This document shows positions 28,054 through 29,684 of a stretch of 64,000 bases of DNA, piece after piece. Within the stretch, counting starts at the first letter, position 1. Every line of letters starts with the position of its first letter. The DNA comes from a virus (lineage: Duplodnaviria; Heunggongvirae; Uroviricota; Caudoviricetes). The position numbers and the translations under genes were made by a program. The DNA lies in IMG/VR virus record IMGVR_UViG_2579779105_000001; one strand, given 5' to 3'. Under the pieces are notes generated by a model, which had not been told where the DNA came from, did not search any database, and was given only the letters and a program-made list of their open reading frames with translations.

Positions 28054-28085
28054 TAACTTTAAATAATGGGGATTATTTAAAGTTA
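28054..28085. other. rox/lox-like recombination site, 14-4-14 (TAACTTTAAATAAT-GGGG-ATTATTTAAAGTTA)
   Basis: Perfect 14-bp inverted arms around a 4-bp asymmetric spacer, 152 bp upstream of the recombinase gene; can also be read as a loxP-like 13-8-13 site at 28053-28086. Confidence 0.65.
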
Positions 28086-28237
28086 GGCTATAATCATGTG
28101 TAGATGAACAGTATTGACATCACTGAAAATACGTGCCTCGAATCAAAGGCTTGTATTTTGAAAATTAACTTATAGCTACCCTGTCATTTTTATATTTTTC
28201 GCGTAGCGTCATATGTATATAGAGGCGAAATAGTTTC

Positions 28238-29266
28238 ATGGGAGAATTAATTATCTCTGGCAGTTCCGGTGGTTTTCTGCGCAACATTGGCAAAGAGTAC
28301 CAGGAAGCCGCAGAAAACTTTATGCGGTTCATGAATGACCAGGGGGCTTATGCGCCGAATACTCTGCGCGACCTCCGGTTGGTGTTTCATTCCTGGGCGC
28401 GCTGGTGTCACGCTCGCCAGCTCGCCTGGTTCCCGATCTCACCAGAAATGGCCCGCGAGTATTTTCTTCAGCTGCATGATGCCGATCTGGCTTCGACCAC
28501 CATTGATAAGCACTACGCCATGCTGAACATGCTGCTTTCGCATTGTGGCCTTCCGCCACTTTCGGATGATAAAAGTGTTTCTCTGGCTATGCGGCGCATC
28601 CGGCGCGAAGCGGCAACTGAAAAAGGCGAACGAACAGGCCAGGCTATACCGCTGCGGTGGGACGATCTGAAACTGCTCGACGTCCTGTTGTCCAGGTCAG
28701 AACGGCTGGTGGACCTGCGCAACCGGGCTTTTCTCTTTGTTGCATACAATACGCTGATGCGTATGTCGGAAATCTCGCGTATTCGTGTAGGAGATCTGGA
28801 CCAAACAGGTGACACTGTCACGCTACATATTTCACACACGAAGACAATAACGACCGCCGCCGGGCTTGATAAGGTGCTTTCCCGTCGCACTACCGCTGTG
28901 CTGAATGACTGGCTGGATGTTTCCGGGCTTCGCGAACATCGTGACGCAGTGCTGTTCCCGCCGATACACCGTAGCAATAAGGCCAGGATCACGACAACGC
29001 CCCTTACTGCACCTGCAATGGAGAAAATATTCAGCGACGCCTGGGTGTTGCTGAATAAAAGAGATGCTACGCCAAACAAAGGGAGATACCGGACGTGGAC
29101 CGGGCATAGTGCACGCGTCGGGGCCGCTATTGATATGGCTGAAAAGCAGGTGTCTATGGTGGAGATCATGCAGGAAGGAACCTGGAAGAAACCGGAAACA
29201 CTTATGCGGTATCTGCGCCGTGGCGGTGTGTCTGTGGGGGCTAATAGCCGCCTGATGGATTCGTAA
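28238..29266 (+). CDS. Cre/Dre-family tyrosine recombinase
   Basis: 342 aa; aligns along its length with P1 Cre as recalled (WFP, LLRIAEIARIRV-like RMSEISRIRVGD, GHSARVGAA); lox-like site upstream. Confidence 0.85.
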   Translation: MGELIISGSSGGFLRNIGKEYQEAAENFMRFMNDQGAYAPNTLRDLRLVFHSWARWCHARQLAWFPISPEMAREYFLQLHDADLASTTIDKHYAMLNMLLSHCGLPPLSDDKSVSLAMRRIRREAATEKGERTGQAIPLRWDDLKLLDVLLSRSERLVDLRNRAFLFVAYNTLMRMSEISRIRVGDLDQTGDTVTLHISHTKTITTAAGLDKVLSRRTTAVLNDWLDVSGLREHRDAVLFPPIHRSNKARITTTPLTAPAMEKIFSDAWVLLNKRDATPNKGRYRTWTGHSARVGAAIDMAEKQVSMVEIMQEGTWKKPETLMRYLRRGGVSVGANSRLMDS

Positions 29267-29270
29267 ATTA

Positions 29271-29284
29271 AATTTCTAACACAT
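29271..29284 (+). promoter_or_regulatory. operator-like motif AATTTCTAACACAT
   Basis: Recurrent motif at the head of the rightward early operon. Confidence 0.45.
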
Positions 29285-29339
29285 CTTTTTAGATTAACGC
29301 CTTTGATGTAAAGTACCCTCGCCTATTTAGGAGGGTGCT

Positions 29340-29684
29340 TTGCAGAGTCAAATCACGGAATCAAGACGCTTCAAGGTGGATGGTTACACCGTAACCTTCG
29401 CTGCTGGTGTTAAGAACAGTCATGCTGTCGTTGTGTTCGGCATCATGACCGGGCTTGAGGCCGTCCCTGTGTTTACCCTCGAAAAAAACTGGCGAAATCT
29501 GGAGGAAGCAGAAAGCTACGTCCGGAAAGTAACCATCATTGCCGCCGAAAAACTCCTGGCCCACTATCAGGAAAATTATCGCACTATGGTCGAGAAGATT
29601 AATCTCGCTTTCACTCGCCCCACTACCGGCTTTATTGCACCGGATACTAATGCAGGTCGCTATCCTGCAAGGGGGCGTCGGTGA
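29340..29684 (+). CDS. hypothetical protein
   Basis: 114 aa; TTG start 5 nt after a GGAGG SD. Confidence 0.4.
   Translation: MQSQITESRRFKVDGYTVTFAAGVKNSHAVVVFGIMTGLEAVPVFTLEKNWRNLEEAESYVRKVTIIAAEKLLAHYQENYRTMVEKINLAFTRPTTGFIAPDTNAGRYPARGRR

Follow-up and report, generated by a model that had tools for sequence, protein, structure and literature searches.

The window analyzed in this work is a 64-kb stretch of viral DNA, in which a short palindrome resides upstream of a gene encoding a tyrosine recombinase. The question raised by this locus is whether palindrome and enzyme make up a recombination system of their own, or belong to one already known. Dre/rox is a standard genome-engineering tool used alongside Cre/lox, and the Dre/rox system of phage D6 was reportedly the subject of work by Sauer and McDermott in 2004. 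A sequence-only reading of the window had claimed a GGGG-centred palindrome at 28054-28085, and the element is indeed there, reading TAACTTTAAATAAT-GGGG-ATTATTTAAAGTTA, that is, TAACTTTAAATAATGGGGATTATTTAAAGTTA. The feature is a minor allele of the well-known Dre/rox, and not a new recombinase/site pair. In the reading favored here, to which we assign a probability of about 0.8, the palindrome is rox of a D6-family plasmid prophage in a rare natural GGGG form, the adjoining gene encodes Dre itself, and the two function in the P1-like manner proposed below. The parts of the site are as follows.

28054-28085, no strand assigned: rox, GGGG-spacer allele, 32 bp, base-for-base identical to D6 rox except at spacer positions 1 and 4
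28054-28067, plus strand: left 14-bp arm TAACTTTAAATAAT, Dre binding element, with the same bases as in D6 rox and 100% complementary to the right arm
28068-28071, plus strand: 4-bp asymmetric centre GGGG, canonical TGGC, by direct reading
28072-28085, plus strand: right 14-bp arm ATTATTTAAAGTTA, by direct reading, pairing with the left arm
28066-28073, plus strand: presumed 8-bp crossover region ATGGGGAT, canonical ATTGGCAT, by analogy with loxP and from mutagenesis (PMC4777119)

The arms are perfect 14-bp inverted repeats around the 4-bp GGGG centre. A pattern search for the arms, allowing any 4-bp spacer and up to 3 mismatches, found one rox-type site in the 64-kb window, against 0 expected from 100 shuffles. 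The D6 record AY753669 annotates, between c1 and dre, a 'region of crossover (rox) site for Dre recombinase', which reads TAACTTTAAATAAT-TGGC-ATTATTTAAAGTTA in the dre orientation, and GCCA at the centre of the other strand. The sequence-only reading had correctly given a rox spacer TGGC/GCCA between the same arms. All arm bases (28/28) are identical to those of annotated D6 rox, and comparison with published roxP, TAACTTTAAATAATGCCAATTATTTAAAGTTA (PMC4777119), whose spacer is TGGC and not GGGG, confirms that the site differs from rox in the spacer alone. The differences are two transversions, T>G at spacer position 1 and C>G at position 4, corresponding to positions 6 and 3, respectively, in the numbering of PMC4777119. 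The centre keeps the length and the asymmetry of the published TGGC/GCCA, but not its sequence. Judged by its bases, the site is an allele of rox distinct from published roxP; the exact variant sequences had no match in a literature search. A sequencing or assembly artefact was considered and rejected, as GGGG recurs in several independent assemblies (loci L016, L042 and L081-L086).

The surroundings of the site are those expected for a relative of D6.

23902-26774, plus strand: pacA and pacB (terminase) genes, open reading frames in the P1/D6-type pac-c1-site-recombinase arrangement
26803-27840, minus strand: c1 phage repressor gene, divergent from dre, an open reading frame matching PF27008 and annotated as c1 in D6 and relatives
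28238-29266, plus strand: dre, tyrosine recombinase, 342 aa, S2G and P235R relative to D6 Dre, 340/342 residues matching AAV84949

The gene order pacA-pacB-c1-rox-dre-orf2-orf3-dut is that of D6, with orf2 and orf3 being small, and rox lies 152 bp upstream of dre, as in D6 and in about 70 other loci. The region 27800-29400 is 96.8% identical to the D6 immC record AY753669; its identity reaches 98.9% among about 116 E. coli, Salmonella and Shigella plasmids that are non-mobilizable and ~90 kb long. Because of this gene order and of the 96.8-98.9% DNA identity, the window is recognized as a D6-like plasmid prophage. Homologues of pacA and pacB in the plasmid of strain 205 are annotated as 'DNA pacase A subunit' and 'terminase'. 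No cluster of TGATCA/G hexamers, the hallmark sought for a P1-type pac site, was found in the window. Just upstream of c1 resides a 12-nt inverted repeat, TTAGTTTTCTAA / TTAGAAAACCAA, at 27855-27866 and 27945-27956 (92% complementary, 78 nt apart), and 'TTTTCTAA' is kept across aligned lineages; the two repeats may be C1 operator half-sites.

The recombinase of the window matches D6 Dre (AAV84949) at 340/342 residues (99.4% identity). As the sequence-only reading had stated, it aligns with Cre as well (residues 22-341, E about 1e-67). The protein matches PF00589, and the catalytic residues R175, H290, R293, W316 and Y325, listed for Dre in PMC4777119, are all kept; a search of the PDB returned no Dre structure. 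The changes S2G and P235R might have been adaptations of the enzyme to the GGGG spacer. This hypothesis was rejected, as in strain 205 and PEC399 the Dre encoded next to GGGG has S2 and P235, and the two substitutions are for this reason unlinked to the spacer. In PEC399, the Dre protein beside GGGG is 100% identical to D6 Dre. What had been guessed from the sequence alone holds in part. The site is of the rox type, differs only in the spacer, and adjoins a Cre/Dre-family recombinase. The further idea of a new orthogonal enzyme/site pair fails, since the enzyme, identical at 340/342 residues, is Dre itself, and GGGG adjoins wild-type D6 Dre in PEC399.

The frequency of the allele has been monitored in four collections. 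One type of scan looked for exact arms around any centre, with counts given in the dre orientation, and retrieved 23 contigs from IMG/VR (21 TGGC, one GGGG, one TAGC) and 15 from metagenomes (11 TGGC, three TAGT, one TAGC). When Dre homologues were gathered irrespective of the site sequence, GGGG was found at 1/36 IMG/VR Dre loci. A flank-independent search with the bare 32-mer identified 152 rox-bearing records among 5,426 complete E. coli genomes. GGGG occurs in 3/152 of these rox-bearing plasmid records (about 2%): the exact site in one, plasmid pCR-0543_3 of strain 205, and GGGG along with an A9G change in the left arm in two, PEC399 and 23CRST022. In PLSDB, GGGG resides in 1/184 rox plasmids (pLAO8, again with A9G), the exact site in 0/184. 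The exact Dre allele of the window is found on at least 10 public contigs, with GGGG at all three places shown. The single-step intermediates TGGG and GGGC were found in none of the collections searched; one-mismatch matches taken for such intermediates were discarded, having proved to be GGGG combined with the common left-arm A9G polymorphism. The GGGG allele is real, but its share is low (about 0.5-3%, varying between collections), a rarity which would fit a mild cost.

Searches of complete E. coli genomes also returned a few rox-type matches on the chromosome, in 4 places with a 45-mer query and in 7 with the palindromic 32-mer. A match in the Clostridia MAG OZ007016.1 (L003, 6381-6412) was set aside, as its centre is TAAT and the 8 kb fetched contain no Dre homologue. 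Both rox arms are exact there, the TAAT centre makes a longer AT palindrome, and the chromosome is AT-rich; most simply, this is a chance AT-rich hairpin.

The carriers of GGGG are not one clone. The allele has been found on at least four flank/enzyme backgrounds. Between L016 and the window there are 4 SNPs in 13.7 kb; the plasmid of strain 205 is only 97.7% identical to the window locally and mosaic elsewhere; PEC399 has a left flank completely unlike that of the window; in 23CRST022 and pLAO8 both flanks differ, and the Dre homologues are about 89-90% identical to D6 Dre. Across strain 205, PEC399, 23CRST022 and pLAO8, Dre is 89-100% identical to D6 Dre, and all ORFs are intact. Flank types were defined by clustering 100 bp on each side of the site. 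GGGG resides on flank types L0/R0, L2/R0 and L4/R3, TGGC on the same left and the same right types. When the core is paired with the left flank, with the right flank or with arm position 9, all four gametes are present each time. Between left-flank types, identity is only about 55%, right up to the site boundary. As all four combinations exist, rox emerges as a mosaic junction, at which the core has been reassorted against both flanks. The pattern could stem from at-site exchange between elements with unlike cores, or from homologous recombination that stopped at the limit of homology; a double transversion that arose more than once is the least likely source. The GGGG allele is inherited and maintained.

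Variation around the site extends further. Right-flank types are about 70% identical, and several left-right combinations occur, L2-R0 and L2-R3 as examples. In the window (27841-28237) and the aligned loci, flank divergence begins at the very edges of the 32-bp site. The A9G polymorphism (TAACTTTAGATAAT, rox position 9, window position 28062) makes the arms unequal, and has been identified with TGGC, GGGG and TGGA-G centres on several flank types (L047, L051, L053, L060-L062, L064, L071, L073 and L084-L086).

How the site would work can be outlined from the known relatives. Two Dre monomers would sit on the 14-bp arms and cleave at the edges of a crossover region of roughly 6-8 bp, which mutagenesis extends at least 1 base into each arm (PMC4777119), and strands would be exchanged with a second, identical rox copy. 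Plasmid-prophage dimers would be resolved in this way, and terminally redundant phage DNA possibly circularized after infection. We infer these roles from the P1 Cre/lox paradigm and the gene order, and circularization from gene order alone. Since the copies of one element share the spacer, its own reactions are homotypic and should be unaffected; the core change need not impair function, because both partners carry the same core. The GGGG centre is still asymmetric, and directionality would be kept. Dre works on other centres, as observed for the rox4R library (about 0.9; PMC4777119) and for pox x pox (PMC4957104). That the GGGG site persists on several backgrounds beside an intact dre gives indirect support to its recombination by Dre.

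Natural rox cores are not limited to TGGC and GGGG. Homologues about 89% identical to Dre adjoin the centre TAGT (L028, L034, L040), and a 69%-identical homologue resides beside rox-identical arms with the centre TAGC (L009/L029/L076; Ga0105251_10000084 = IMGVR_UViG_3300009011_000012). As 69-89% identical homologues adjoin rox-identical arms with differing centres, recognition of the arms is conserved far beyond the D6 Dre sequence. Another natural allele, TAACTTTA(A/G)ATAAT-TGGA-GTTATTTAAAGTTA, has been identified in the E. coli JS316 plasmid NZ_CP058619.1 (L043, 1535-1566) and in IMGVR_UViG_2908543018_000007 (L072), on two unrelated flank backgrounds, L0/R0 and L4/R3. This TGGA-G allele alters the first base of the right arm, position 2 in the numbering of Chuang et al. 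(T>C), a position experimentally tied to roxP incompatibility. On published criteria, TGGA-G is for this reason a better natural heterospecific rox candidate than GGGG. More distant homologues, 55-56% identical to Dre, reside beside a related palindrome, TAACTTTATATAA-TGTCAG-TTATATAAAGTTA, about 151 bp upstream of the recombinase gene, with no TATAAT after the site (L078 and L079; IMGVR_UViG_3300013827_000026 and IMGVR_UViG_3300025735_000294). Palindrome and recombinase possibly make up a distinct Dre/Panto-like system.

Some elements in rox, and between rox and dre, bear on what the core change may do, and are listed here.

28067-28072, plus strand: position of a -35 hexamer, TTGGCA in the canonical site and TGGGGA here (3/6), from a promoter consensus scan
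28089-28094, plus strand: TATAAT, candidate -10, 3 nt after the site, from consensus and conservation
28114-28143, plus strand: second promoter-like element TTGACA-18-TCGAAT, upstream of dre, 10/12 match

The dre leader (28095-28237) shows strong conservation, for instance in the blocks ACTTATAGCTACCCTGTCATTTT and TTTTTCGCGTAGCGTCA, the latter recognizable even in the 56% Dre lineage, and includes an imperfect hairpin (28126-28159). In an Rfam scan, the c1-dre intergenic region returned only a chance-level match, far below threshold.

What the GGGG core changes can be seen in different ways. The sequence-only reading proposed that GGGG-rox may be naturally heterospecific. Such a site would recombine with itself but not with TGGC-rox; D6-like elements bearing it would be cut off from Dre-mediated co-integration or exchange with the others, and it could serve as one more heterotypic rox site. 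We hold this to be unlikely, though not far-fetched. GGGG and TGGC have two mismatches in the presumed 6-bp overlap, one per half, at positions 3 and 6. All rox pairs that recombined in B. subtilis had an uninterrupted 4-bp half in common, and pairs with mismatches in both halves of the 8-bp region fail to recombine, among which rox12 (AgGCCtgT) x rox62 (AcGCCcgT), with one mismatch per half at positions 2 and 6; according to the primer table, the variants of that study all retain GCC at positions 3-5 (PMC12331466). Similarly, Dre gave no rox x pox co-integration, which the authors blame on spacer incompatibility (PMC4957104), and the lack of TGGG and GGGC in every collection searched points in the same direction. 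Against isolation, a pooled library randomised at these four positions recombined with roxP at ~0.9, about the wild-type level, in E. coli, and Chuang et al. traced incompatibility to two arm positions, 2 and 7, libraries including which did not reach this level (PMC4777119). In that numbering the wild type is ATGCCAAT and the window allele ATCCCCAT; positions 3 and 6 differ, and positions 2 (T) and 7 (A), those conferring incompatibility in E. coli, are unchanged. In addition, GGGG and TGGC reside on the same unrelated flank types. Heterospecificity is disfavored because all four gametes are hard to obtain without exchange, unless the double transversion arose several times, and natural reassortment leans against strict isolation. 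Published evidence conflicts, and strict heterospecificity of GGGG-rox versus TGGC-rox seems to us improbable. Recombination between GGGG and canonical rox is probably reduced rather than abolished, and on this ground GGGG would be no strict isolation barrier; a lower GGGG x TGGC rate is likely at physiological Dre levels. The one-perfect-half rule of B. subtilis predicts no such recombination at all, against this estimate. The low frequency of GGGG would also fit a site that recombines poorly or not at all, crippled by a slightly deleterious mutation in a prophage undergoing decay or domestication. This is very improbable: the arms are both perfect, every carrier has an undamaged dre ORF encoding the catalytic residues, GGGG resides on several diverged backgrounds and in many isolates, and Dre accepts many central sequences.

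Alternatively, the variant may be mainly regulatory, the rox centre being the -35 box of a dre promoter, perhaps Dre-repressed, and GGGG a promoter-down change lowering or derepressing Dre expression. We regard this as possible, though on balance doubtful. In D6, the spacer and the arm base on either side of it (T on the left, A on the right) spell TTGGCA, and TTGGCA-16-TATAAT is an 11/12 consensus match facing dre, the sole promoter-like match in the c1-dre intergenic region. Of the simulated regions, 3.5% contain a match of at least 11/12; the 64-kb window contains none, and with TGGGGA in place of TTGGCA no match passes the scan there. The offset of TATAAT is invariant in all loci with a Dre homologue at least 69% identical, despite variation in the preceding 3 nt and the following bases, and retention of TGGC in lineages with otherwise unalignable flanks suggests a constraint on the spacer. 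The canonical presumed 6-bp overlap TTGGCA would thus double as the -35 of a promoter reading toward dre, and the canonical core may serve as a -35 box that Dre could occlude. GGGG changes two of the six -35 bases and probably weakens this candidate promoter, which would leave dre to the second downstream element. In turn, the natural alleles TAGT and TGGA-G degrade the -35 likewise, what identifies the promoter is a consensus match along with conservation, the second promoter-like element is nearer to dre and conserved (TATTGACA and TTCGAATCAA are kept in lineages down to 89% Dre identity), and none of the annotated cre promoters of P1 overlaps loxP. A loxP-overlapping promoter in P1 was considered as an analogue and discarded, being absent from the annotated record. 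The searchable literature yielded no report of a rox promoter. A broader picture, in which the natural cores TGGC, GGGG, TAGT, TAGC and TGGA-G define partly incompatible groups among D6-like prophages, GGGG is a ready heterotypic site for unmodified Dre at physiological levels, and the core doubles as the dre -35, coupling specificity to autoregulated expression, is a long shot.

A rare natural rox allele beside an ordinary Dre, with function plausibly retained, is the reading we keep. The occurrence of a natural spacer allele beside wild-type Dre suggests that in nature the enzyme works with more than one core. GGGG-rox is a candidate extra rox variant, and the practical gain is small because engineered heterotypic rox sites exist, and the positions changed are those least important in the E. 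coli compatibility screen; its value as a tool would be small even if it were heterospecific. Two modest leads for phage biology arise: the reassortment of flanks, arm polymorphism and core alleles at rox, a mosaic junction, and the coincidence of the canonical core with a -35 box close to consensus and oriented toward dre. Neither turned up in the literature searched. The -35 overlap is a side observation, perhaps new, and is tempered by the fact that other natural alleles also weaken the -35 match.

Among known systems, the closest is Dre/rox of D6 (AY753669, MF356679), which shares with the window the arms (28/28), the 14-4-14 layout, the 152 bp to dre, the c1-rox-dre-orf2-orf3-dut order and an enzyme 99.4% identical. 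D6 differs in having the spacer TGGC instead of GGGG; the window has S2G and P235R in Dre, and lacks the -35-like TTGGCA.

Cre/loxP of P1 has a homologous enzyme in a homologous genome position, pac-c1-site-recombinase, and presumably the same roles in dimer resolution and circularization. In contrast to rox, loxP is of the 13-8-13 type with other arms. The loxP and rox systems are not known to cross-react. In P1, loxP is about 415 bp from cre, whereas rox in the window is 152 bp from dre, and the annotated cre promoters pR1-pR3 are all downstream of loxP, without overlap. A perfect loxP (34/34) was also noticed in the Lactococcus phage Q33 (JX564242.1, 17548-17581), inside the annotated portal protein gene; unexpected in a natural Gram-positive phage, it may come from engineered or contaminated sequence.

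Engineered heterotypic sites, namely rox7, 8, 12, 61 and 85 (PMC4777119), and rox9, 13, 14, 62 and 63 (PMC12331466), are altered, like the window allele, within the central 8 bp, and are recombined by Dre. In contrast to GGGG-rox, which is changed at positions 3 and 6, the engineered incompatible sites change positions 2 and/or 7, the first arm bases, and keep GCC at 3-5. Panto/pox involves a rox-like site, different at one arm base and at four/eight spacer positions, and Dre recombines pox x pox (PMC4957104). Panto is another enzyme, 52% identical to Dre and from another host (Karimova et al. 2016, PMC4957104), whereas the enzyme of the window is Dre.
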